DNA of 64,000 nt from Acidimicrobiia bacterium (lineage in GTDB: Bacteria; Actinomycetota; Acidimicrobiia; IMCC26256; JAOSJL01). This document shows positions 17,192 through 29,691 of this stretch, in pieces (position 1 is the stretch's first letter; every line of letters begins with the position of its first letter). The stretch covers positions 79,397 through 143,396 of the forward strand of contig JAWKJA010000003.1 in the NCBI GenBank assembly GCA_041394025.1. Reading direction: 5' to 3'. The position numbers were made by a program, and so were the translations under genes. Under the pieces are notes generated by a model, which saw only the letters and a list, made by a program, of their open reading frames with translations, was not told the DNA's origin and ran no database searches.

Positions 17192-18340
17192 TCAACAGAC
17201 GGGTGCGACCCAGGGGTAGGGGTTCACGGCGCCGCCGCCGCCGGGGTGCACCTCAAAGTGCAGGTGGTTAAAGCCGGGAGTCCCATTGCCGGTGGCGCCG
17301 TTGTAGCCGATCACGTCACCTGCCTGCACGGCACCACCCTTGGCGGTGCCCGACATGTGCATGTACAGGTAGATGTTGCCGTCGCTACCGCTCAGAGTCG
17401 CACCCAGTCCTCCGCCACCCATGTCACCGAACGAGACAGTTCCGGAGACGACGGCGACGAGCGAGCCACCGTAAGGACCGCCCATGTCGACGCCTTGATG
17501 CGAACGGCCGCCCGAGCGGGGATCACCCCACGAATCAGAGAACCCTCCGTGGCCGGGGAACGGGCAGAGGATGTTGCCCGGACCGCCGGGCGAACCGCCG
17601 AGGTTGCCGCCTGGGGTCGGCGGACCGGGTGCCGTGGGGGCCGGGGCAGTAGCGGGCGCCGGGGCCGCTTGCGAATCGGAGGCGACCGCCTCTGCGTCTC
17701 GGCTGGCACGAGCGGCGGCTTCCGCAGCACGGGCGGCCTCGGCAGCAGCAGCGCGCTCGGCTTCGATTCGCGCTTGCTCGCGCGCCTCCGCGAGCACCGC
17801 CTCGGCGGCGGCGGCCTCCTTCTCGAGATCAGCGATCTCAGACTGCATCTCCTCGAGCGCCACGGCTTGGTCCTCGCGCTTCGTCTCGAGCTCGGCTCGG
17901 CGTCGCTTGAGATCCTCTTCGAGCGCTCCCAGCTGCTCGATCTTGTCGTCGTCGTCGCCCTTGAGCTGCTCGAGTAGTCGCGTCTTGCGCGCGACGTCAA
18001 GAACACTGTCGCTTTCGAGGACCTCGGCGATGTCGACGTTGCCGCCGGTGTAGGCCTCGACTGCTCGATCACGGGCTACAGCGCGCACCTCCTCGGTGTA
18101 CGCGTCGGCGGCCTCGACTTCGCTCTCCATGTCTGCGACTTCGTTCTCGAGCTCGTAGTAGGTCGCCTGTGCGTCGGCAACGCGTTCGGCTCCTGCATTC
18201 AGCTCGGCGCGGGCCGCCTCGGCGGCGGCGCTGGCCTCGTCGACCGAAATTTGGTCGCGCGGCGCGGCGCCGACTGGCAAAGCGATGGCAAGCGCGAGAG
18301 CTACAACGAGAAGAATCGTCGTGAGACGAGAAGGGAACAC
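17192..18340 (-). CDS. M23-family metallopeptidase with N-terminal signal/anchor and long Ala/Glu-rich coiled coil
   Basis: C-terminal HQGVDMGGPYGGSLVAVVSGTVSF...YMHMS...GYNGATGNGTPGFNHLHFEVH is the M23 HxxxD/HxH pattern. The N-terminal 200 aa have a heptad-like EAxxAxxE composition. Confidence 0.8.
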   Translation of the reverse strand: MFPSRLTTILLVVALALAIALPVGAAPRDQISVDEASAAAEAARAELNAGAERVADAQATYYELENEVADMESEVEAADAYTEEVRAVARDRAVEAYTGGNVDIAEVLESDSVLDVARKTRLLEQLKGDDDDKIEQLGALEEDLKRRRAELETKREDQAVALEEMQSEIADLEKEAAAAEAVLAEAREQARIEAERAAAAEAARAAEAAARASRDAEAVASDSQAAPAPATAPAPTAPGPPTPGGNLGGSPGGPGNILCPFPGHGGFSDSWGDPRSGGRSHQGVDMGGPYGGSLVAVVSGTVSFGDMGGGGLGATLSGSDGNIYLYMHMSGTAKGGAVQAGDVIGYNGATGNGTPGFNHLHFEVHPGGGGAVNPYPWVAPVC

Positions 18341-18382
18341 GTGAGCTCCGTAGAGGGGGGCTGGCGAGTTGCGGGAACCGTA

Positions 18383-18396
18383 ACAAGAGCTCTTGT
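18383..18396. promoter_or_regulatory. perfect 14-bp palindrome ACAAGAGCTCTTGT in the M23/cupredoxin divergent intergenic region
   Basis: Read directly from the sequence. Confidence 0.3.
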
Positions 18397-18399
18397 GCT

Positions 18400-18453
18400 T
18401 TGCAACTACATGACGTCATATTTCGCTTGCAACTACGTTGCGTCGTATTTCGA
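18400..18453 (+). promoter_or_regulatory. two tandem 27-bp direct repeats TTGCAACTAC(ATGACGTCA/GTTGCGTCG)TATTTCG (candidate operator pair)
   Basis: r1 is 18400-18426 and contains the palindrome ATGACGTCAT. r2 is 18427-18453 and contains GCAAC-TAC-GTTGC and GTCGTA. They lie about 60-115 nt from both flanking start codons. Confidence 0.4.
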
Positions 18454-18513
18454 TAGAGGTCGACTGTCGATCACCAACACATACAGAGCCTTCCCCGATG
18501 GAGGAGATCACTG

Positions 18514-18993
18514 ATGATGGGATCTAGGACCAGGTCACGCATCGTGGGAATCGTGGCGGTCACCGCGGCGGGTCTCCTCGTCCTTGGGGCGTGCGGGAGC
18601 GGCGACGGCGACTCCGCATCCACGACGACCGCCGGCGAGCACATGGAAGAAGAGGGCGAGGGTCACACGGAGGGGGACGGAGGCCACGCGGAGAACAGCG
18701 CGGTGGCTCCTGGCGCGCGAACCATCGAGGTTTCCGCGACGTCGTTCGAATACGGGACGCCGACGATCGAGGCCACCGTGGGCGAAGACATCGAGATCGT
18801 ACTGACCTCCGATGACGTGGAACACGATTTCATCATCGATGAGTTCGAGGCCCACGTCTCTGCGGAACCCGGCGAGACGGCGTCGGGTGGCTTCACGGCG
18901 TCAGAAGCCGGCGAGTACACCTTCTACTGCAGCGTGCCGGGACACCGCGATGAGGGCATGGAGGGAACCCTCGTCGTCACCGAAGCGTCATGA
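18514..18993 (+). CDS. cupredoxin (plastocyanin/azurin-like) domain lipoprotein
   Basis: GGAGGAG RBS and lipobox LLVLGACGS. EHDFIIDEF...YTFYCSVPGHRDEGMEGTLVV matches a type-1 copper site pattern (H...C..H....M). Confidence 0.8.
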   Translation: MMGSRTRSRIVGIVAVTAAGLLVLGACGSGDGDSASTTTAGEHMEEEGEGHTEGDGGHAENSAVAPGARTIEVSATSFEYGTPTIEATVGEDIEIVLTSDDVEHDFIIDEFEAHVSAEPGETASGGFTASEAGEYTFYCSVPGHRDEGMEGTLVVTEAS

Positions 18994-19005
18994 GGGCCGC
19001 GCCCC

Positions 19006-19024
19006 CGAGAAGCTCAGTTTCTCG
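19006..19024. terminator. short hairpin CGAGAA-N7-TTCTCG between the convergent cupredoxin and csoR genes
   Basis: Read directly. Weak 6-bp stem with no clear T-tract. Confidence 0.25.
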
Positions 19025-19026
19025 AC

Positions 19027-19296
19027 TCATTGGCTGGATGGACGACGCGCGCCGAAGACAGCACCCATGAGCTCGTCGGCGACGTCGTCGATTCGTCCTT
19101 CCGCGTAGGCGTCGGCGACGCAGGTTCTCAGGTGCCCGTCGACAATGGCCTGCGCGGCTCGGTCGAGAGCGGCCTGAACGGCTCCGAGTTGATGCAGCAC
19201 GTCGATGCAGTAGCGGTCATCTTCGAGCATCCGGATCACGCCGTCGAGATGCCCGCGAGCGCTCCGCAGGCGTTGAAGAGATTCGGGGTTGCTCAT
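19027..19296 (-). CDS. csoR: CsoR/RcnR-family metal-sensing repressor, Cu(I)-type ligand set
   Basis: 89 aa: RLRSARGHLDGVIRMLEDDRYCIDVLHQLGAVQAAL...GHLRTCV. This gives the C-H-C fingerprint (C30, H55, C59). Confidence 0.85.
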   Translation of the reverse strand: MSNPESLQRLRSARGHLDGVIRMLEDDRYCIDVLHQLGAVQAALDRAAQAIVDGHLRTCVADAYAEGRIDDVADELMGAVFGARRPSSQ

Positions 19297-19577
19297 CGCA
19301 ACGCCTCCAAGCGTTCGTGGTACTCGTCGGTGGTCAGTTCACCACGTGCGTAGCGCTCGGCGAGGATTTCGCGCGGTCGCTCGCCCCTCTCGCGCGGGCC
19401 TCGGTCCTGCCCTCGCATGACGAGCCAGACCGCGATACCGATGACGGCGACCCAGAAGATCATCATCAGGGATCCCCACAGCCACATCCATCCTCCACCC
19501 CAGCCGTCCATGTGTCCCCACCCGCCGGCGAGCATCTCTGCCAGCCCCAGCGTCGGTTGCAGCGTCGTCAATTGCAT
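19293..19577 (-). CDS. SHOCT-domain membrane protein
   Basis: Internal ATG at 19577 of ORF 19293..19643. Gly/Trp-rich segment, TM helix FWVAVIGIAVWLVM, then ILAERYARGELTTDEYHERLEAL (SHOCT). Confidence 0.65.
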   Translation of the reverse strand: MQLTTLQPTLGLAEMLAGGWGHMDGWGGGWMWLWGSLMMIFWVAVIGIAVWLVMRGQDRGPRERGERPREILAERYARGELTTDEYHERLEALR

Positions 19578-19582
19578 GATCC

Positions 19583-22500
19583 TCAGCTCCCTACGAGGTT
19601 CTCGATGAACTTGTCGGGCTCGGCGACGAATGCGTCGCGACACCCCTCCGAACAGAAGTAGCGGTCGCTACCGTCGTCGTGCGCGTGGATCGCGGTTGTG
19701 GGGTCGACGGTCATCCCGCACACGGGATCGGTGGCCATCGGTGTTGGCTCGTCCTCGTCTTCTGCAGCTGTCTCGACACGGGGCTCCACGGGGGCTGCCT
19801 CGACCTCGGGAAGCGGCGCCGCGTGCCATCGTCGGAGACGGTTGGCGTTCGTCACCACCGACAGGGAACTCGCTGCCATCGCCGCCGCGGCGATGATCGG
19901 GCTCAGGCGGATCCCGAAGAACGGGTACAGCACGCCGGCGGCGATCGGGATCCCGACAGCGTTGTACACGAACGCCAGGAACAGGTTCTGGCGGATGTTG
20001 CGCATCGTGGCCCGGCTGAGCGTGATGGCTGTGACCACGCCCGTGACGGCCCCGGAGATGAGCGTGACATCGGAGGATTCGATCGCGACGTCCGTTCCCG
20101 TGCCGATGGCAAAACCGACGTTGGCCTGCGCGAGTGCGGGAGCGTCGTTGATGCCGTCGCCGACCATGCCGACGACCTTGCCTTCCTCCTGAAGTCGGCT
20201 GACCTCGCGTGCCTTGTGCTCCGGAAGGACCTCGGCCAACACCCGGCCGACGCCTGCCTGACGGGCGATCGCTCCGGCGGTTCGCCGGTTGTCTCCGGTC
20301 ATCATCACGACCTCGACCTCGAGACGCGTGAGCGCCGCGACGGCCGACACCGAGTCGTCCTTGAGCGTGTCGGCCACCGCGATCACTCCCGCCGGTTGAC
20401 CATCGACAGCCGCGAGCATCGGGGTCTTGCCTGCTTCGGAGAGGCGGTCGGCGACCGCTTCCAGGTCGGCCCGCCCGACACCGGCGTCCTCGAGGAGGCG
20501 GTGGCTCCCGACGAGGACCTCGTGGCCGTCCACAGTTGCCCGGATGCCCTTGCCGGTCACGGAGTCGAATCCAACGGGCTCGGCCAATTCCAGCGAGGCG
20601 TTCTGTGCGCCGCGCACGATCGCTTCGCCGAGCGGGTGCTCCGATGCGCGTTCCGCCGAGGCGACCAGGCGGAGCAGATCGTTCGGATCGACGCCGTCGA
20701 CCGTCTCGATGTCGGTGAGCGCGGGCTCGCCTCGTGTGAGAGTGCCGGTCTTGTCGAGCACGACGGTGTCGAGCTCGTGGGCCGTCTCGAGCGCTTCGGC
20801 GGAGCGGATCAGGATGCCGTGCTGGGCGCCCTTGCCCGTGCCGACCATGATCGAAAGGGGCGTCGCGAGACCGAGCGCGCATGGGCAGGCGATGATCAGC
20901 ACCGCGACCGAGCTGACCAGAGCGAAGGTCATCGCAGGCTCTGGCCCAACGACGAACCAGACGGCGAAGGTGCCGAGCGCGATGAACATCACGGCCGGAA
21001 CGAAGTAGCTCGAGATCAGATCGGCAAGACGCTGGATCGGCGCTCTCGACGCCTGCGCCTCCTCGACGAGGCGCACGATCTGGGAAAGCATCGTGTCGGA
21101 CCCGACCTTGGTGGCCCGCATGTGGAAGGCGCCCGTCTGGTTGACGGTCGCCCCGATGACGGTGTCGCCGGCCTCCTTCGTGACCGGAATCGACTCGCCC
21201 GTGACCATCGACTCGTCGAGCGTCGAACGTCCCTGGAGGATCTCCCCGTCGACCGGAATCTTCTCTCCCGGGCGCACGACGACTTCGTCGCCAACGACGA
21301 CGTCCTCGATGGGCACCTCGCGCTCGCCGTCGTCTCGCACCACTCGCGCCGTGCGGGCCTGGAGACCGATGAGCTCGCGGATGGCCTCGCCGGTCCCCGC
21401 CTTGGCCCGCACCTCGAGGAGGCGACCAAGCAGGATCAGCGTGATGATGACCCCGACAGCTTCGTAGTAGACGTCGCGCACCTCCGAGGGCAGAAGGCTC
21501 GGCGCAAGCGTGACGAGCAGGCTGTAGCCGAATGCCGCTGTCGTGCCGACCGTGATGAGCGTGTTCATGTCGGCTGTGCGATGGCGCAGCGTGAGCCAGC
21601 CGATGTGATGGATGGGCCAACCTGCATAGAACATCACCGGGGCGATGAGCGCGAGCTGGAACCAGTGGTTCAGCAGCAGCGACGGCACCCAGGTGACGTC
21701 GAAGAGCTCGTGGGCCATCACCCCGACCGCCACCGGAGCACTCAGAACCGCACCAACGATCACCCGGCGGCTCAGGTCGGCGATCTCCGCCTGACGGGCG
21801 GCGGCCTCGGCATCCTCCTCTTCGCCTTCGCGCCCCGCACTGTCGTGCGTCGCGCCTCGCCCGCCTCCGTCCACCGTGCGCACCCGATAGCCGATCTCGG
21901 CGACGGCATCAGTGATCTCGTCAACGGTGAGTCGTTCCGAGTCGTAGACGACCGCGAGTCGCTCCTGGCCGACACTCGCCTCCACCCGATCGACACCGGC
22001 CACGTCCTCGAGCCAAGCTTCGATGTTCGTCACACAGGTCGGGCATCCGGTGCCTACGGACTCGAGTGCCAGCTCCACCCGGGCCTCACCATCCAGGTCG
22101 ACGCCAGGGCCGACTTCGATCGTGCGTGCCTCCTCGTGCTCATGAACGTGCGCCTCGGCGTCGCGGGGCTCGACGCCCGCTTCGGCGGAGGAGGCGGTTT
22201 CAGTAGTCCCGGAGCCGTTGCCCGCCTCGACGACGAGCGTGCCGTGGACCATGTTCATTCCGCAGGCGAAGCCGAACTCTCCTTCCTTCTCCGGAGTGAA
22301 CTCGACGGTGGCGGTCCCAAACGCGGGGAGTGCCTTGCTCACGCCGAAATCCGGGAACAGGACCCGCGACGTGCAGTCACCGGACTCCTGTCGATCGAAA
22401 ATGAGCCGCAGCGGCACCCCCTCCCGCACGATGACCCGATCCGGCGAGTACCCGCCCTTCACCGTTACGACGACTTCTTGGGCGCCGCCCTGCAAGGTCG

Positions 22501-22594
22501 CCTTACCGGCTCGCTTGGAGCCGAAGAAGAACCAGGCCAGGAACAGGATCGCAGCAACCGACCCGGCGATCACGCCCGCATCGACGACATCCAT
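19583..22594 (-). CDS. copA: copper-translocating P1B-type ATPase with N-terminal cupredoxin-like domain, HMA domain and C-terminal TRASH/YHS domain
   Basis: 1003 aa with CPC ([12 protein letters not shown]), [17 protein letters not shown], an HMA domain (GCPTC), an N-terminal [38 protein letters not shown], and a C-terminal [10 protein letters not shown]....[11 protein letters not shown]. Confidence 0.9.
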
Positions 22595-22637
22595 GACCGT
22601 GCTCCCCTCGATCTGTGTCTCGAACGACCTCCTGAGG

Positions 22638-22663
22638 ATACACCCCGGGGGAGGGGGTGTCTA
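22638..22663. promoter_or_regulatory. candidate CsoR operator 1 (ATACACCCC-GGGGGA-GGGGGTGTCTA) upstream of copA
   Basis: GC-rich inverted repeat ACACCCC/GGGGTGT, 44-69 nt upstream of the copA start. Same style as known CsoR boxes (C-tract, spacer, G-tract, A/T flanks). Confidence 0.45.
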
Positions 22664-22673
22664 GCGCTCATCG

Positions 22674-22697
22674 ATGTCGCTATTCAGCCTGCGACAT
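22674..22697. promoter_or_regulatory. inverted repeat ATGTCGC-N10-GCGACAT in the copA/ABC divergent region
   Basis: Read directly. Function unknown. Confidence 0.2.
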
Positions 22698-22733
22698 AAG
22701 GGCAATATCCCGCATTACGATTTCGCCCGGTTG

Positions 22734-22758
22734 ACACCCCCCCTGGGAGGGGTGGTAT
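22734..22758. promoter_or_regulatory. candidate CsoR operator 2 (ACACCCCCCCTGGGAGGGGTGGTAT) between TTGACA and TATGCT promoter-like hexamers
   Basis: TTGACA at 22731-22736 and TATGCT at 22756-22761 (19-nt spacer). The box fills the spacer and lies 24-48 nt upstream of the ABC ATPase ATG at 22782. Confidence 0.45.
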
Positions 22759-22781
22759 GCTCCGCCCCGACGAAGGGTGGG

Positions 22782-23492
22782 ATGATGACGGCGACAACCG
22801 ACCGGCACCAGATTCCCGACCCCGGAAGTGCACGAGACGGCACGGGAGGCGACGACCTCGTGGCCGTCCTCGAGGCCCGGGGGATCGTGAAGTCGTATCG
22901 GACCGGCTGGTGGCCCCGGCGCCGGTCGCTACGCGTGCTGCGCGGCGCCGACGTGACGCTCCGGCCGGGAGAGATCGTCGGCCTCGTGGGGGAAAACGGC
23001 TCGGGCAAGAGCACGCTCATGAGCATCCTCGTGGGAGCCCTCGCTCGCGATGGGGGGACAGTTCGCATGCGCGGCACCATGGGCTACTGCCCGCAGACAC
23101 CTGTCCTCTACGAACGGCTGACCTGCGATGAACACTTCGAGTTGTTCGGCCGCGCCTACGGACTCGATCGAAGCCAGGCCACGGAGGCCCGCGACCCCAT
23201 CTACGACGCACTCGGGTTCGGCAATTGGTCCGAGACCCGCGTCGAGGAGCTGTCCGGAGGGACGCGCGCCAAGCTCAACCTCGGGCTCGCGTTGCTCCCC
23301 GACCCCGAGCTGCTCCTCCTCGACGAGCCGTATGCCGGCTTCGATTGGGACACCTACCTGCGCTTCTGGGAGCTGACTCGAACACGACGTGAGGCAGGAC
23401 GGAGCGTGCTCATCATCAGCCACTTCGTGACCGATGAAGAGCGCTTCGACCGCATCGTGCACCTCCGCGACGGTCGGACGGCCGAGCAGTGA
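22782..23492 (+). CDS. ABC transporter ATP-binding protein (ABC-2/DrrA-like)
   Basis: Internal ATG 22782 of ORF 22674..23492, chosen because the promoter-like box lies upstream of it. Motifs GENGSGKST, LSGGTRAKLNL, LLLLDEPYAGFD. Confidence 0.8.
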   Translation: MMTATTDRHQIPDPGSARDGTGGDDLVAVLEARGIVKSYRTGWWPRRRSLRVLRGADVTLRPGEIVGLVGENGSGKSTLMSILVGALARDGGTVRMRGTMGYCPQTPVLYERLTCDEHFELFGRAYGLDRSQATEARDPIYDALGFGNWSETRVEELSGGTRAKLNLGLALLPDPELLLLDEPYAGFDWDTYLRFWELTRTRREAGRSVLIISHFVTDEERFDRIVHLRDGRTAEQ

Positions 23493-24979
23493 CCGCGCTG
23501 CTCACCCATCGCTACCTCGTCGAGTACGGCCGACGCCCGATCAATGTCGTGCTGCTCGCGGTCGTGCCTTTCGTATTCGTCACACTCTCGGCCGGCGCGA
23601 TCGTCGATTTCGCCGAGGTCTTCGGGGGGCTGGGTGATCGCGGCTCGCTCGAGGCGGCCACAGCCGGATGGGCGGCCGCCTTCATCGCGGGTGTCGCCGG
23701 CTTCTTTCATGTCACCGGGTCGCGCGCTGCAGACCGACGTGTCGCCGCGGCGGGCGCAGGGACCGGCCCGGTGGTCACCTCCCGGATGCTCTCCGCCGTC
23801 GCGATCGCCGGGGTCGCCGTGGTCGGGTCGCTGCTGGCGCTCGCCCTCCGAGCGGGTATCTCGGACGTGCCGCTCGCGGTGGTAGCCACGGCGATGTTCG
23901 CCCTGATCTACCTGTCGATCGGCGTCGCTGTCGGCGCGGTGGTGCGCTCCGAGGTCAACGGCTCGCTCGTCATCATCTTCGTGTGGATGTTCGATGTCTT
24001 CCTCGGTCCGACCATGGGCGGCTCCGACGTCGCGGTGCTGCGTCTGCTCCCGACGCACTTCCCCACACTCGTGATGATCAACGCACACACAGGGCATGCC
24101 GGCCCAATCGGCGACCTCGGCGCGTCGCTGCTCTGGACGGTCGGAGCACTGACCCTGGCGTGGTTGATCCTCTCGGCGACCACACGTCCGGCACGGGCGC
24201 GTATCCGCACGACGTCCGGGTCCTGGGCCCGGCTCGTCGCTGGACTGCGGTACGGATTCCGCGAGTACCGACGCAACGTCGCCCTCTGGATCCTCCTCAT
24301 CGGCCTCCCCATCTTCTTCATCACCGCCGCAATCGCCGTGACCCCAGCCGATCCGACACCGGTGAGTCTCACCGAAGGCGGAATCAGCGCGATCGAGATC
24401 ATCTCGATGACGAGAGTCCACGGGGCGATCATGGTTCCGATCACGGTCGCGTTCCTCGCCGGCCTTGCGGGCATGTTCGTTGTACTCGACTCGGCCGAGG
24501 GTGATCGCCGCCTCGTCCTCGCCGGGTTTCGGACCCGCGAAGCACTCGCAGCGCGACTCGGCATCATCGCCTTCGCATCGCTCCTCGCGACGGTCGTGTC
24601 CTTGCTGATCACCGCCCGCGACTTCACTCCCGACGTGTGGCTCACATTCGCCGCGGCCACCGTGCTCGTTGCTCTCACCTACGGCATGATCGGCGTCATC
24701 GTCGGAATTCTCTTCGGACGCGTCGGTGGCCTCTATGTCATCTTCCTGCTCCCTTTCATCGACGTCGGACTTGCTCAGAACACGATGTTCAGCGCCGCGC
24801 CGCCCGACTGGGCCCGGTTCATGCCCGGGTACGGCGCAGTGCAGGTGCTCATGGACGGAGCGTTCACACCGGGGTTCGATACAGAGTTCGCGCTCGGACT
24901 TGCTGTCGCCTGGCTGGCGGGGATCACGGCAGTCGCCGTCGCTGTGTTCCATCGTGTCGCTGCCGCTCGAAGAACATGA
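23489..24979 (+). CDS. ABC-2-type transporter permease (polytopic)
   Basis: 496 aa, hydrophobic throughout. ATGA-type overlaps with both neighbours. Confidence 0.7.
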   Translation: MTALLTHRYLVEYGRRPINVVLLAVVPFVFVTLSAGAIVDFAEVFGGLGDRGSLEAATAGWAAAFIAGVAGFFHVTGSRAADRRVAAAGAGTGPVVTSRMLSAVAIAGVAVVGSLLALALRAGISDVPLAVVATAMFALIYLSIGVAVGAVVRSEVNGSLVIIFVWMFDVFLGPTMGGSDVAVLRLLPTHFPTLVMINAHTGHAGPIGDLGASLLWTVGALTLAWLILSATTRPARARIRTTSGSWARLVAGLRYGFREYRRNVALWILLIGLPIFFITAAIAVTPADPTPVSLTEGGISAIEIISMTRVHGAIMVPITVAFLAGLAGMFVVLDSAEGDRRLVLAGFRTREALAARLGIIAFASLLATVVSLLITARDFTPDVWLTFAAATVLVALTYGMIGVIVGILFGRVGGLYVIFLLPFIDVGLAQNTMFSAAPPDWARFMPGYGAVQVLMDGAFTPGFDTEFALGLAVAWLAGITAVAVAVFHRVAAARRT

Positions 24980-25659
24980 CGCTCCCTCCTGCGAAGCCCG
25001 AAGCCGCCGAGACGAAGCAGGAGCGGACGTTCGCCTTCGTGGACCTCGCCGGCTTCACCGCGCTCACCGAGATCCACGGCGACGTCGAGGCTGCCGACCT
25101 CGCGGAGCGTTTCACGACGCTGAGCAGATCAGTGCTCCAGCCCGACGATCAGCTCGTGAAGTCGATGGGCGACGCGGTCATGCTCGCGTTCCCCGGGCCG
25201 GACTCAGCTCTCGGAGCGCTCGCGCGCCTGATCGACGCGTGTAACCAGGAGCCTGGCTTCCCGTCGCCGCGCGCGGGGCTGCACCACGGCAGCGCGGTCG
25301 AACGCGGTGGTGACTGGTTCGGCCGTAGTGTCAACCTCACGGCACGCGTCACCGACCAGGCGCGAGGAGGACAGTCGTTGGCGACCTCCGACGTCGCCGA
25401 TGCTGCACGAGCGCTGGAGCTACCCACCGTGGCACTCGGTTGCTTCGAGTTCCACAACCTCGCCGACGCGGTGGAGCTCTGGGACATTGCTGTCGCGGAA
25501 TCGCCGTGTTGCTGGTTCGTCGACCCCGTGTGTCGCATGCGGATTGAGCGGAACGAGGCGGCGGGTCGACTCAGGTACGCGGAAAAGGACTGGTGGTTCT
25601 GCTCGCTTGAATGCGCGAGCGCGTTCGCTCAGTATCCCAAACGCTACGCGGCTAAATGA
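24976..25659 (+). CDS. class III adenylate/guanylate cyclase catalytic domain fused to a C-terminal TRASH/YHS metal-binding domain
   Basis: Internal ATG 24976 of ORF 24637..25659 (ATGA overlap). Cyclase motifs FAFVDLAGFTALTE, VKSMGDAVMLAF, GLHHGSAVERGGDWFGRSVNLTARV. Then DPVCRMRIERNEAAGRLRYAEKDWWFCSLECASAF. Confidence 0.75.
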   Translation: MTLPPAKPEAAETKQERTFAFVDLAGFTALTEIHGDVEAADLAERFTTLSRSVLQPDDQLVKSMGDAVMLAFPGPDSALGALARLIDACNQEPGFPSPRAGLHHGSAVERGGDWFGRSVNLTARVTDQARGGQSLATSDVADAARALELPTVALGCFEFHNLADAVELWDIAVAESPCCWFVDPVCRMRIERNEAAGRLRYAEKDWWFCSLECASAFAQYPKRYAAK

Positions 25660-25711
25660 TGAGTCGCGCGTGCGCCCGTCTCGATCACCCTCGGCGCTGA
25701 GGAGCTGACTG

Positions 25712-26302
25712 ATGCCGGCGATGTCACAGATCGAGCGGACCTTCTGTCGAAGCGCACCGTGGCGTGCATTCACCCGAGGCATGATCTTGCCGTGGGTACT
25801 AGGAGCTGAGCCTCTTGTTGGCGACGTCTTGGAGATCGGATCCGGCAGCGGTGCAATGGCGGCAGCCGCGGTCGAGCGCTTCCCCGACGTGAGGTTCACC
25901 GCGACCGACGCGGACCCAGCCATGGTCGACGCAGCAACGACGCGCCTCGCTCCACTTGGTGATCGGGCCGACGTACGTCTGGCCGATTCCACGGCGCTCG
26001 ACTTCGCGGACGACCGTTTCGACGCCGTGCTCTCCTTCCTCATGCTCCACCACGTACTCGAATGGGAACAGGCCTTGGCAGAGGTCGTTCGGGTTGTCCG
26101 GCCAGGTGGATACTTCATCGGCTACGACTTACTCGACACTCCGCCGGCGCGGCTCATCCACAGGCTCGACGGTTCCGCTCACCACTTGTTCCCGCTCTCC
26201 GCGCTGCGCGCTGCCGTGGCCGGCCTTCCCGTCGAGACGCTCGAGGTCGCCGCTGGGCTCGGAGGGCTCGTCGCCCGGTTCCGGCTTCGCACGGACGGGT
26301 GA
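25712..26302 (+). CDS. class I SAM-dependent methyltransferase
   Basis: Motif I VLEIGSGSGAMA, then FDAVLSFLMLHHV and VVRPGGYFIGYD. Confidence 0.75.
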   Translation: MPAMSQIERTFCRSAPWRAFTRGMILPWVLGAEPLVGDVLEIGSGSGAMAAAAVERFPDVRFTATDADPAMVDAATTRLAPLGDRADVRLADSTALDFADDRFDAVLSFLMLHHVLEWEQALAEVVRVVRPGGYFIGYDLLDTPPARLIHRLDGSAHHLFPLSALRAAVAGLPVETLEVAAGLGGLVARFRLRTDG

Positions 26303-26312
26303 CGCCCGTCGG

Positions 26313-26849
26313 TCAGCTCACCTCACGCATGGTGTTCTCAGCGCTGCCCCACGCGAGGATCACGCCGACGATCAGGAAGACGTCGGCGAGGTTGAAGGTC
26401 GGTCCTGACGACCATGTGATCCAGTCCACCACCGCGGCATCGGGGAAGCCTCCTCGCTGGACGAGTCGGTCGACGAGATTTCCCAGCGCTCCCCCGATCG
26501 CGAGGCCCAGCCCGACTGCACGCGCGGGAGTCGCTGTCGGAAACGCGCGGACCGACACGATCAGGAGCACGGCCGTTGCAGCGAAGACGACCCAGAGCGG
26601 GGCGGGGATTCCCATCAGGATTCCACGATTCGCCACGAGCCGCAACGAGATCGGCCCCGGAAGGTCAACCGGCCCGTGTGCCAGCCAGCCGACGGCAATC
26701 GCCTTGCTGATCTGGTCCACCACCAGTGCCGCGATCGCGACCCCTATCGCTGTCGTTGCCGACACAACTGGTCGGCGAGCCGTCACGAAGGACGGCTGGG
26801 CCTCTGTTTCCGTGGCGCTCTGTTCCGCGATCTCGGAGTCGTCCCGCAT
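26313..26849 (-). CDS. lspA: lipoprotein signal peptidase II (island-borne copy)
   Basis: VDQISK..LVANRGILMG..GGALGNLVDRL..AAVVDWI..FNLADVFLIVGV. Start set at ATG 26849; the ORF track start is 26888. Confidence 0.8.
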   Translation of the reverse strand: MRDDSEIAEQSATETEAQPSFVTARRPVVSATTAIGVAIAALVVDQISKAIAVGWLAHGPVDLPGPISLRLVANRGILMGIPAPLWVVFAATAVLLIVSVRAFPTATPARAVGLGLAIGGALGNLVDRLVQRGGFPDAAVVDWITWSSGPTFNLADVFLIVGVILAWGSAENTMREVS

Positions 26850-26860
26850 GCTCGCGGATG

Positions 26861-26877
26861 CTACGACATCATGTCGG
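26861..26877. promoter_or_regulatory. palindrome CTACGACAT-C-ATGTCGGTG in the lspA/ccdA divergent region (TACGAC/GTCG-type candidate BlaI-family operator)
   Basis: CGACAT-C-ATGTCG is a perfect 6+6 inverted repeat, 12-28 nt upstream of the proposed lspA start. Confidence 0.35.
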
Positions 26878-26988
26878 TGGTTACACACCGCCTCGGTACT
26901 GGTCTCGGTGTTACTCCCGCCGAGTTGCCCGAGGTGACGAGCGCCGGTGGGAAGTGGGCTTCTTTGAACTACTACGGTTTGTCGTTGT

Positions 26989-27717
26989 ATGGAGTTGGTG
27001 GCGCTCCCGCTGATCGCAGTCGTTGCCGGAGTCGTGTCGTTCAGCTCTCCGTGTGCACTGCCTCTGGTCCCTAGCTACCTGTCGTACGTTTCGGCCCTTC
27101 CTGTCTCTGACTTGGATCGCGCCGAAGCGAGGTCGATCACGCTGCGTGCTGCGCTCCTGTTCGTCCTCGGTTTCACCCTGGTCTTCACGCTGCTCGGCGT
27201 CTCGGTCGGGATTCTCGGATCGGCGCTCAACCGGAACATGCCGCTCATTCTCAAGATCTCGGGATTCGTGATCATCGTCATGGGCCTCGGGATGCTCGGG
27301 ATCGTTCGGCTGCCGATGCTCACACGGGAGCGACGTCTCGACCTCGCTCGGGTTCCGACCGGCCCGAAGGGCGCGGTTCCGCTCGGAATGGCGTTTGCAT
27401 TCGGTTGGACTCCGTGTATCGGTCCCGTCCTGGCCACGATCCTCGCGACCGCGTCCGCCACTCAGACTGCGGCGTGGGGCGGTCTGCTCCTGGCCCTGTT
27501 CTCGATCGGCCTCGGCCTTCCGTTCATCCTGCTCGCGCTCGGCTACGACCGTGCCCGAGGATCGCTGGGATGGCTTCGACGGCACGGCCAGGCGATCGAG
27601 CGCATCGGTGGTGCGATGCTCGTTGTCATCGGAGTCCTGTTCGTCACCGACGTGTGGAGCTCCTTCTTCCTGCCGTTGCAGCGCGAGTTCGCGAGGCTCG
27701 GATGGCCTCCGATCTGA
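26989..27717 (+). CDS. ccdA: cytochrome c biogenesis thiol-disulfide transporter CcdA/DsbD-family
   Basis: VVSFSSPCALPLVPSYLSYV and FAFGWTPCIGPVLATIL, the two conserved Cys motifs in a 6-TM protein. Confidence 0.85.
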   Translation: MELVALPLIAVVAGVVSFSSPCALPLVPSYLSYVSALPVSDLDRAEARSITLRAALLFVLGFTLVFTLLGVSVGILGSALNRNMPLILKISGFVIIVMGLGMLGIVRLPMLTRERRLDLARVPTGPKGAVPLGMAFAFGWTPCIGPVLATILATASATQTAAWGGLLLALFSIGLGLPFILLALGYDRARGSLGWLRRHGQAIERIGGAMLVVIGVLFVTDVWSSFFLPLQREFARLGWPPI

Positions 27718-28381: not shown

Positions 28382-29308
28382 TCAGGAGAAGCAGTGACCG
28401 CCCAGTGCAAGCAGGTGATGGGCGTCGGTGACCCAAGCCGTTGCGACCGCGAGGCCGACGATTCCGAGAGCGGCCATGGGTGCGTAGGTCAGCATTCGAG
28501 CGCTGCGAATTCGGGAGGGGCCGTGCCGGCGAAGGCCTCGGAGCCGGTTGGCGACGGAGTCGGATTCGGGCTTGTCGGGTACTGCGCTACAGCGGGCGAT
28601 CGCATGCAACGCCGCGCTGACCGGCAGTGGACCCTGCGATCTCGTGGCTGCCTGCTCGTCGGCCGAGCGTTCGACCTCCTCTCTCAGCACGTGGGCGCTC
28701 CGCCGCGCTCCCGGAACCAAGAAGAAGACTTGCTCGACAACAACCGCAAGAGCAAGAAGCCGGTGGTGGCGTAGCTGATGGTGTGCGATCTCGTGGCCGA
28801 TCACCGCGTCGAGCTCAGTGGTATCAAGAAGCTCGACGAGACCGCTGGAGACAACGACCTGAGGGCGCGGACCCGGAACGCAGAGCGCCATGACGCGGCT
28901 CGTCGGAACGGTGACGAGCTCGTAGGAGCCCTTGTCCTCATGCCGGCCGAGCCACGGATCGACGTGAAGGGCGCGGGCGCCGACATGCGCTCGCGAGGCG
29001 GCGTGCATGGCAGTCGCCGGGATCCCGACCGCAAGCGCAGCGGCTAGCCATCCGATGGTGGGACCGCCGGGCGTCACGTGGACGAGGACCTCCTCGCAAA
29101 GATGCGCGACCTCCGGGATTCCCGCCGCACGGAGCACGGTCGGAAGAGCGAGCATCACCAGCCCCGCCTCGACGACGATCACGCCCGAGGTGAGTGCCAA
29201 CGTTGTGACACGGGTGCTCTCGGCGGCGGGGAGAACACCGAGGCGCGTTTGCAACCATCTCGGCGCTGCGATGAGCGCGATGCCCACGACGAGCAAAGCG
29301 ATACTCAC
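28382..29308 (-). CDS. M56-family (BlaR1/MecR1-like) membrane metalloprotease, short form
   Basis: Internal GTG 29308 of ORF 28382..29620 (GTGA overlap with the blaI-like stop). Four or more TM helices and the HEIAHHQLRHH zinc motif. Confidence 0.75.
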   Translation of the reverse strand: MSIALLVVGIALIAAPRWLQTRLGVLPAAESTRVTTLALTSGVIVVEAGLVMLALPTVLRAAGIPEVAHLCEEVLVHVTPGGPTIGWLAAALAVGIPATAMHAASRAHVGARALHVDPWLGRHEDKGSYELVTVPTSRVMALCVPGPRPQVVVSSGLVELLDTTELDAVIGHEIAHHQLRHHRLLALAVVVEQVFFLVPGARRSAHVLREEVERSADEQAATRSQGPLPVSAALHAIARCSAVPDKPESDSVANRLRGLRRHGPSRIRSARMLTYAPMAALGIVGLAVATAWVTDAHHLLALGGHCFS

Positions 29309-29691
29309 GAGCGCCTTCCGCCGCTCTGCCCACGCCGAAGTAGGTTTCGGAGCCGTCGAGTCTCTGCAGCATTCATGGAATCGACGAAGTGCCCGAGCGC
29401 CAACGATGGGTCGCCCGCCTGCTCGAGGAGGTCGTGCATGCGCTGGGCGGCCAGTTCCTCGCGTGTGGCGACGGGCCGGTACAGGTACTTCTTGCCTTCT
29501 CGGCGCCGCTCCAACAGGCCCTTTTTCCAGAGCCGTACGAGAATCGTCATGACTGTCGAATACGCCAGACGACGACGCGGAGCGGAGACGGCTTGCTGGA
29601 CCTCTGCCGGAGCGAGCCAATCCTCCTCGTCCCAGAGAACGTCCATCACCTCTGCTTCGAGTTCGCCGCGCTCGCGTCGCTTCACCGTCAC
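29305..29691 (-). CDS. BlaI/MecI/CopY-family winged-helix transcriptional repressor
   Basis: ELEAEVMDVLWD..LAPAEVQQAV....LAYSTVMTILVRLWKKGLLERRREGKKYLYRPV. No C-terminal Cys cluster, so it is not a classical CopY. Confidence 0.85.
   Translation of the reverse strand: MTVKRRERGELEAEVMDVLWDEEDWLAPAEVQQAVSAPRRRLAYSTVMTILVRLWKKGLLERRREGKKYLYRPVATREELAAQRMHDLLEQAGDPSLALGHFVDSMNAAETRRLRNLLRRGQSGGRRS

Follow-up and report, generated by a model that had tools for sequence, protein, structure and literature searches.

A putative copper-stress locus of an Acidimicrobiia bacterium combining CopA, CsoR, an ABC-2-type exporter and a class IIIc adenylyl cyclase with a YHS domain

Introduction

The fusion of a nucleotide cyclase to a YHS domain has been characterized in MpAC, a 233-aa protein of Mycobacterium phlei (Linder, 2015, PLoS One; PMC4626032). 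MpAC shows no activity with Mg2+ alone and is turned on by 1-10 µM Cu2+, for which its YHS domain is required; activation is not obtained with Zn, Fe, Cr, Co, or Ni, and the effect of copper on the isolated catalytic domain is inhibition only, seen above 10 µM (PMC4626032). The proposed copper ligands are D178, C181, C204, and C208, with W201 and W202 as reporter tryptophans (PMC4626032). The 2015 study found 26 cyclase-YHS proteins, one of which, from Candidatus Microthrix parvicella (Acidimicrobiia), was included in the published alignment; it contained no gene-context analysis, and the role of the enzyme in the cell was said to be "open to speculation" (PMC4626032). A literature search found no paper on the cyclase-YHS family later than 2015. 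Described here is the locus of a 227-aa cyclase-YHS protein encoded in a 64,000-nucleotide stretch of the genome of an Acidimicrobiia bacterium (GenBank assembly GCA_041394025.1, contig JAWKJA010000003.1, positions 79,397 to 143,396), the whole of which is called the window. The fusion itself represents no new kind of system, its design being known already, and the window enzyme is a new member of the family; a preliminary description of the window had stated that no characterized example was known, which MpAC shows to be wrong. Judged from sequence and by analogy with MpAC, the locus is likely to be a copper-stress module of two divergent units, copA-shoct-csoR on the minus strand and abcA-abcB-cya(YHS)-methyltransferase on the plus strand, which would be controlled by CsoR and would produce cyclic AMP (cAMP) under a copper gate.

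The pH-sensing adenylyl cyclase Rv1264 of M. tuberculosis (PDB 1Y10/1Y11) is a further described relative. The CsoR operators described in the literature take the form of G-tract pseudopalindromes, and most of them have a TAC-N9-GTA dyad (PMC3902906). Rv1217c-Rv1218c is a mycobacterial type V exporter of the ATP-binding cassette (ABC) superfamily with two fused membrane domains (PMC11406275; PDB 8K1M-8K1P). No paper joining csoR, copA, and ABC-2 transporters, or tying such an ABC pair to CsoR or CopA, was found in a literature search.

The Cyclase-YHS Protein

Both domains of the 227-aa protein are recognized by Pfam, Guanylate_cyc with 23.6 bits (cut-off 21.9) and YHS with 34.0 bits (cut-off 30.3) over residues 182-225. 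The cyclase domain lies at approximately 25015-25491 and the YHS domain at 25519-25650. All of the class III motifs quoted in the preliminary description are present and, as discussed below, the catalytic residues within this domain are intact. The closest catalytic domain is that of Rv1264 (phmmer, E = 1e-23), to which residues 15-143 align without gaps. This gapless stretch includes the arm region, pointing to a short dimerization arm and hence to subclass IIIc, Rv1264 itself being a class IIIc enzyme in the classification of Linder and Schultz.

An alignment of 24 homologs with 51-68% identity shows D23, K62, D66, D113, N120, and R124 to be invariant, and Rv1264 has identical residues at these positions. 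On what is established for Rv1264, D23 and D66 are the metal-binding aspartates, K62 and D113 the adenine pair, and N120 and R124 the transition-state pair. The absence of substrate- or metal-binding residues, raised earlier as a possible objection, is ruled out by the alignment with these homologs and with Rv1264. A guanylyl cyclase was considered and rejected because the Lys/Asp specificity pair is present. The YHS ligand set D183, C186, C209, and C213 is invariant in the same 24 homologs, and the four ligands together with the W206-W207 pair are invariant or nearly so.

The AlphaFold model of the protein is confident, with a predicted local distance difference test score (pLDDT) of 92.7 and a predicted template modeling score (pTM) of 0.84, and its top Foldseek matches are Rv1264 (E ~1e-15) and Ma1120. 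The model places the end of the last cyclase strand at residue 171 and the start of the first YHS strand at residue 180, a linker in the MpAC-type range of 8-11 residues. An extra Cys-Cys pair, C178-C179 (25507-25512), occurs in this linker just before the YHS domain; it is unconserved, with Phe-Cys in the closest homolog. The conserved catalytic and YHS residues and the confident model indicate that the protein is a class IIIc cyclase, intact and specific for ATP, that bears its YHS domain at the C-terminus. The earlier suggestion that its activity could be gated by metal is strengthened by the published copper gating of the same architecture in MpAC and by the same ligand spacing (PMC4626032). 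Two YHS domains only are encoded in the genome, both at this locus, and the second ends the neighboring CopA (residues 955-997, Pfam), as the preliminary description had stated.

Divergent Promoters and CsoR

The csoR gene is present in a single copy and is the sole CsoR-family gene of the genome (tblastn). Its product matches M. tuberculosis CsoR (PDB 2HH7) with E = 1.6e-19, and the alignment pairs C30, H55, and C59 with a Cys, a His, and a Cys. The latter three are Cys36, His61, and Cys65, the Cu(I) ligands of M. tuberculosis CsoR.

Each of the two divergent promoters has a G-tract box in its -35/-10 spacer. The boxes have 7-nt arms and a 7-8 nt center, and they contain no TAC-N9-GTA dyad. 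The pattern ACACCCCN5-10GGGGTG, which bears out the resemblance to the copA box noted earlier, has two matches in the window, at 22640 and 22734, against 0.03 expected. There are three matches in the 3.05-Mb genome, the third apparently in coding sequence, so that only the window pair is intergenic. A consensus scan that admits spacers of 16-18 nt called one promoter-like site between 22500 and 26500, TAGACA-17-TATCCT, on the minus strand upstream of copA; it called no plus-strand promoter ahead of the ATPase gene because the 19-nt spacer there exceeds its range. The site TTGACA-19-TATGCT given in the preliminary description is present, with the box in its spacer.

The arrangement is retained by a congeneric sister species (G002), in which the whole block, methyltransferase included, is syntenic at ~80% nucleotide identity. 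Both G-tract boxes are kept in its intergenic region, with the DNA between them deleted or diverged; Box 2 reads TTGACCCCCCGGGGGAGGGGGGCTA, and a G-tract box occupies the place of Box 1. The TTGAC and TA..G.T parts of the promoter of the ABC-cyclase operon are conserved as well, and a box similar to Box 2 is found in a metagenome locus (L143). In the sister species (L086, 6900-10430) copA and the ATPase, permease, and cyclase genes were each matched in two reading frames, which is tentatively read as assembly indel errors and not as decay. A second CopA paralog of the window organism (46% identical; contig C4, ~253600-255900) has no upstream G-tract box; the boxes are therefore no general feature of copA genes, and the proposed CsoR regulon seems to be limited to the two divergent promoters of the window.

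The assignment of the boxes as CsoR operators is a well-supported reading of the sequence rather than a demonstration, because they represent a longer variant without the dyad and the canonical form is absent from the genome. Copper-derepressed expression through CsoR, as previously proposed, is backed by comparison, namely by the unique intergenic boxes, their conservation in the sister species, the single CsoR with its Cys-His-Cys set, encoded in the copA operon behind Box 1, and the linkage of csoR and of canonical CsoR operators to relatives of the cyclase (see Gene Context of Cyclase Relatives).

Organization of the Locus

Two divergent gene strings, identified from the list of open reading frames (ORFs) and the sequence, lie within positions 19027-26302 of the window (Table 1).

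TABLE 1. Genes, promoter-like sites, and G-tract boxes of the locus, in window coordinates.
Feature	Position	Strand	Evidence or remark
csoR	19027..19296	-	Last gene of the copA operon; Pfam Trns_repr_metal, 88 bits
SHOCT-domain small membrane protein, between copA and csoR	19293..19643	-	Pfam SHOCT, 28.6 bits
copA, P1B-type Cu ATPase	19583..22594	-	Pfam and NCBIfam
copA promoter-like site, TAGACA-17 nt-TATCCT	22635..22663	-	Consensus scan; Box 1 in spacer
Box 1, ACACCCCGGGGGAGGGGGTGT	22640..22660		G-tract pseudopalindrome, 7-nt arms ACACCCC/GGGGTGT
ABC-cyclase operon promoter-like site, TTGACA-19 nt-TATGCT	22731..22761	+	Read from sequence; TTGACA at 22731-22736, TATGCT at 22756-22761
Box 2, ACACCCCCCCTGGGAGGGGTGGT	22734..22756		Fills the promoter spacer of the ABC-cyclase operon
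ABC transporter ATPase (nucleotide-binding domain)	22782..23492	+	Pfam ABC_tran, 88 bits
496-aa permease, two fused ABC-2-type membrane domains	23489..24979	+	Internal repeat, homolog profiles, AlphaFold model
Class IIIc adenylyl cyclase with C-terminal YHS, 227 aa	24976..25659	+	Pfam, alignment, AlphaFold model
Class I SAM-dependent methyltransferase	25712..26302	+	Pfam Methyltransf_11 and Methyltransf_25

The ATPase and permease genes are joined by a 4-nt GTGA overlap and the permease and cyclase genes by a 4-nt ATGA overlap, both as described earlier. The ATPase may start at the second ATG, 22785, which aligns with the sister species. A longer ATPase ORF from 22674 was rejected because the sister species has non-triplet gaps in that stretch. 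The gene for the S-adenosylmethionine (SAM)-dependent methyltransferase starts 52 nt past the cyclase gene with a GAGGAG ribosome-binding site ahead of it, no terminator-like site is found in the gap, and it is probably the fourth gene of the ABC-cyclase operon. Its product matched no specific family in NCBIfam. The lspA gene is convergent with it, 10 nt past its stop codon.

On the minus strand, CopA consists from N- to C-terminus of Cupredoxin_1, HMA, the ATPase core, and YHS (Pfam, NCBIfam). The Cupredoxin_1 domain of the window protein is fused N-terminally (residues 16-122), and many related metagenome loci (L088, L091, L096, L103, and others) have a separate Cupredoxin_1 match in the interval from copA to the ABC ATPase gene. 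The SHOCT ORF shares a 4-nt overlap with csoR. As listed it runs 61 nt into the end of copA; its true start is probably the in-frame ATG at 19577, 6 nt past the copA stop. SHOCT homologs are found repeatedly in related copper loci. The same island also encodes a BlaI/CopY-like repressor at 29305-29691, which overlaps an ORF at 28382-29620. An Rfam search of 18000-27000 returned zero RNA elements.

Gene Context of Cyclase Relatives

The cyclase-YHS family has since grown to 1539 proteins (E <= 0.001), and species-representative genomes contain at least 537 of its loci. Eighty of these loci were surveyed (81 counting the window), with neighbors identified by tblastn with the window proteins and by conservation-based clustering of ORFs, cluster representatives being annotated with Pfam. 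Among the 53 loci with at least 3 kb on each side of the cyclase gene, taken as well-flanked, 25 have a metal-homeostasis gene within 3 kb. The commonest neighbors are methyltransferase homologs (19 loci), ArsR-type regulators (16), P1B ATPases, and ABC ATPases (12), followed by CsoR (9), BlaI/CopY-like repressors (7), and multicopper oxidases (6); redoxin, DsbD, and DsbA proteins, CopZ, SCO1, and DUF305 are also found.

The csoR gene lies immediately 5' of the cyclase gene in the same orientation in three loci (L007, L008, and L069). Canonical TACCCC-N-GGGGTA boxes occur 10 times in the cyclase loci against 0.05 in simulated sequence. They stand at the head of methyltransferase-cyclase operons in a Nocardioides (L057) and a Marmoricola (L073) and within the divergent copper promoters of L063 and L069. 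With 19 occurrences against 14.3 in simulation, the loose pattern ACCCC-N2-12-GGGGT shows no enrichment in the cyclase loci. The adjacency of csoR and the canonical operators make the tie between the cyclase and copper regulons a recurrent one across lineages. A second ABC set, in which an ATPase and a permease of the MacB/FtsX type are accompanied by a small free-standing YHS protein, adjoins csoR or the cyclase in several loci of Acidimicrobiia (L008, 3886-6786; L069, 166-2567; L002, 3-617; L087, 3177-3998). In L008 it forms part of a co-oriented run that ends in csoR and the cyclase and has a canonical CsoR box in front.

The methyltransferase, a class I SAM-dependent enzyme of ~200 aa, is the most conserved neighbor of cyclase-YHS genes. 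Its homologs are found in 19 of the 81 loci (the window, L007, L017, L018, L021, L022, L033, L051-L057, L065, L067, L073, and L080 among them); 18 matches lie within 1 kb, mostly on the same strand, and in 11 of the 53 well-flanked loci the two genes are directly adjacent. The cyclases so linked belong to at least four separate clades of the cyclase tree, and the methyltransferase may stand on either side of the cyclase, upstream or downstream.

The ABC-2-Type Exporter

The ATPase retains its motifs in translation, with Walker A (GENGSGKST), the signature (LSGGT), Walker B (LLLLDEP), and the H-loop all intact. The two halves of the permease resemble each other (E = 6e-8), indicating an internal duplication, and about 12 hydrophobic helices are predicted. 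The window permease itself scores 29.4 bits with ABC2_membrane_3, below the Pfam cut-off of 31.6; its homologs match ABC2_membrane_3 in 13 of 13 aligned sequences (best E = 1.7e-13) and ABC2_membrane in 9. A profile search against PDB sequences gave no match. The AlphaFold model of the permease has a pLDDT of 74, and its best full-length structural match is Rv1217c (8K1O; TM-scores 0.63/0.61), with NosY second-best for each half. The His and Met residues that are invariant in the permease (M176, H190, H203, H311, M315, and M433) all lie in loops or at helix ends. Given the usual type V topology they would be on the outer-leaflet side and could form a site of the Cu(I) type, but the enrichment is statistically unconvincing.

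The context of the permease was surveyed in 80 metagenome loci encoding homologs of 36-68% identity, of which 46, of at least 5 kb, were taken as well-flanked. CopA or CsoR is present in 33 of these 46. Frequent gene orders are copA-cupredoxin-ATPase-permease, csoR-ATPase-permease, and ATPase-permease-copA-csoR. In 12 of 50 loci the ATPase gene has a G-tract box no more than 120 nt ahead of it; canonical CsoR boxes are found 11 times against none in simulation, and the loose pattern ACCCC-N2-12-GGGGT is enriched (36 observed, 12.6 simulated). From these contexts the ABC exporter is probably a regular yet undescribed member of copper regulons.

Linkage of the cyclase to this exporter is rare and not general. 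Of 81 cyclase loci, the window counted, 3 have a permease of the window type as a neighbor of the cyclase; conversely, a cyclase is found in one of the 46 well-flanked permease loci (L134), with a second case on a shorter contig (L165). The latter has the order permease-cyclase-csoR, with permease stop and cyclase start overlapping as in the window and csoR behind its own box; its cyclase is 41% identical to that of the window. Cyclases linked to ABC genes are dispersed across the cyclase tree.

Proposed Mechanism and Alternative Explanations

In the copper-stress module proposed above, the single CsoR of the genome, as a tetramer, would sit on both boxes in the absence of copper and block RNA polymerase. 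A rise in cytosolic Cu(I) would load C30, H55, and C59 and release CsoR from DNA, allowing both units to be transcribed. The cyclase would then be made and, as has been shown for MpAC, would presumably remain nearly inactive with Mg2+ until copper is bound at D183, C186, C209, and C213. Since copper would be needed both for derepression of the gene and for activation of the enzyme, cAMP would be expected only if copper is still present once the protein has been made, a two-step AND-type gate by which a persistent copper load may be converted to a cAMP signal. The genome encodes six other class III cyclases and four cyclic nucleotide (cNMP)-binding proteins, and one of the latter, all encoded elsewhere in the genome, could read the signal. 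The ABC exporter would be a separate recurrent member of the copper regulon, tied to the cyclase by shared regulation and not by an obligate partnership.

Several observations weigh against this mechanism. The 19-nt spacer between TTGACA and TATGCT is long for a sigma-70-type promoter. The boxes differ from canonical CsoR operators in missing the TAC-N9-GTA dyad, and the canonical box pattern has zero matches genome-wide. Activation of the window cyclase by copper is an extrapolation from MpAC, because the enzyme is ~44% identical to its mycobacterial relatives, a group that includes the M. phlei enzyme. Copper in the cytosol is present as Cu(I). The assays of MpAC were made in vitro with Cu2+ (PMC4626032). 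About half of the cyclase-YHS loci have no metal gene nearby, and the neighbors of the mycobacterial cyclases are ArsR-type regulators and P1B ATPases other than CopA. There is no site of the CRP/GlxR type (TGTGA-N6-TCACA, at most one mismatch) in the window, and so no sign of local cAMP feedback.

One alternative is that the operon is regulated by copper while the YHS domain is no activating sensor, acting instead as a structural treble-clef module, as a copper-buffering or chaperone-docking site, or as an inhibitory site, so that cAMP would follow transcription only. MpAC is the single enzyme of this architecture assayed so far, the window protein is distant from the mycobacterial homologs at the identity just given, the catalytic domain of MpAC alone is inhibited by copper above 10 µM (PMC4626032), and the window linker carries the unconserved C178-C179 pair. 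The near-complete invariance of the four ligands and the Trp pair in 24 diverse homologs, with the spacing of MpAC, is nevertheless what is expected of a functional metal site, and a YHS domain without a sensing role is considered unlikely.

Equally improbable is an ABC-cyclase operon that does not respond to copper, its G-tract boxes being the site of another regulator or a feature of GC-rich promoter architecture without any repressor. The missing dyad at 9-nt spacing and the lack of any canonical box in the genome would fit such a view, as would the presence of other regulators in the island, such as the BlaI/CopY-like repressor. The boxes are, however, the sole intergenic sites of their kind in the genome; they occupy the spacers of divergent promoters beside the only csoR gene and are kept in the sister species; the homologous ABC genes of many CopA/CsoR loci have related long boxes or canonical ones in front of them; and the intergenic region shows no TACANNTGTA motif of the CopY type.

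A functional unit of cyclase and ABC exporter, in which the cyclase might, for example, dock on or regulate the transporter, is very unlikely: the stop-start overlap of permease and cyclase genes is shared by the window and a distant lineage, that of L165 (cyclase 41% identical), and the two genes are also close together in L026, L039, and L060, but the rarity of the linkage in both surveys (3 of 81 and 1 of 46 loci), the scatter of ABC-linked cyclases over the tree, and the methyltransferase, not the exporter, as the most conserved neighbor of the cyclase all speak against it.

The copper-stress module with a CsoR-controlled, copper-gated cyclase is therefore retained as the likely reading of the locus. 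A wider and more doubtful proposal, offered tentatively, is that the ATPase and fused ABC-2 permease together constitute an unrecognized and widespread copper-resistance determinant of high-GC bacteria under CsoR control, which in this genus would have been wired with a copper-gated cyclase and its methyltransferase partner, such that one promoter would serve both efflux and a two-step-gated cAMP signal. Other copper regulators may take the place of CsoR in other genomes, and the exporter may act on copper, on a copper-thiol complex, or on envelope lipid of the outer leaflet damaged by copper.

Several elements of this picture are new. Relatives of the cyclase are often found in metal-homeostasis loci, and some appear to be co-transcribed with csoR or to lie behind canonical CsoR operators; the methyltransferase emerges as a conserved partner of the cyclase; and an ABC pair resembling Rv1217c-1218c in fold recurs in CopA/CsoR loci. 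This gene context makes the physiological role of a copper-activated cyclase testable. Placement of the cyclase gene in a CsoR regulon, as suggested for several unrelated lineages, would mean that cAMP is made only under a sustained cytosolic copper load. Either the exporter or the small SAM-dependent methyltransferase could represent a new component of copper tolerance in bacteria.

Comparison with Known Systems

MpAC is the nearest counterpart of the window cyclase. In both proteins (233 and 227 aa, respectively) a single class IIIc domain with the six canonical residues is joined by a short linker to one YHS domain at the C-terminus, and the Asp/Cys/Cys/Cys ligands and Trp-Trp pair are identically spaced with a constant offset of +5. 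The window cyclase, ~44% identical to its mycobacterial relatives, is set apart by its place inside a CsoR/CopA island and by an operon that also takes in an ABC exporter and, probably, a methyltransferase. Rv1264 provides the nearest solved catalytic domain; unlike the window cyclase, it has an N-terminal pH-sensing regulatory domain and is without a YHS domain.

Among transporters, Rv1217c-Rv1218c shares with the window pair the combination of one ATPase gene and one permease with two non-identical ABC-2 domains, although sequence identity to the window permease is 15% only. That pair has the regulator Rv1219c and is associated with rifampicin resistance and lipid-like substrates, whereas the window pair belongs to copper loci. 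NosFY, part of the NosDFY(L) machinery for copper-centre assembly (PDB 7O0Y and others), resembles the window pair in its ABC-2 membrane domain and copper context; NosY, however, is a single 6-helix domain that depends on NosD and NosL, and neither partner is encoded here.

The CsoR-regulated copZA/copA operons of M. tuberculosis, B. subtilis, and Streptomyces lividans (PMC3902906) are similar to the window in that a CsoR with the Cys-His-Cys set is encoded with copA. They are similar also in having a G-tract pseudopalindrome over the promoter and an autoregulated csoR gene (PMC3902906), an arrangement that the window would share if the boxes are CsoR operators. The window differs from these operons in its long boxes without TAC-N9-GTA and in the proposed extent of its regulon, to which an ABC-2 exporter, a cyclase, and a methyltransferase would be added.

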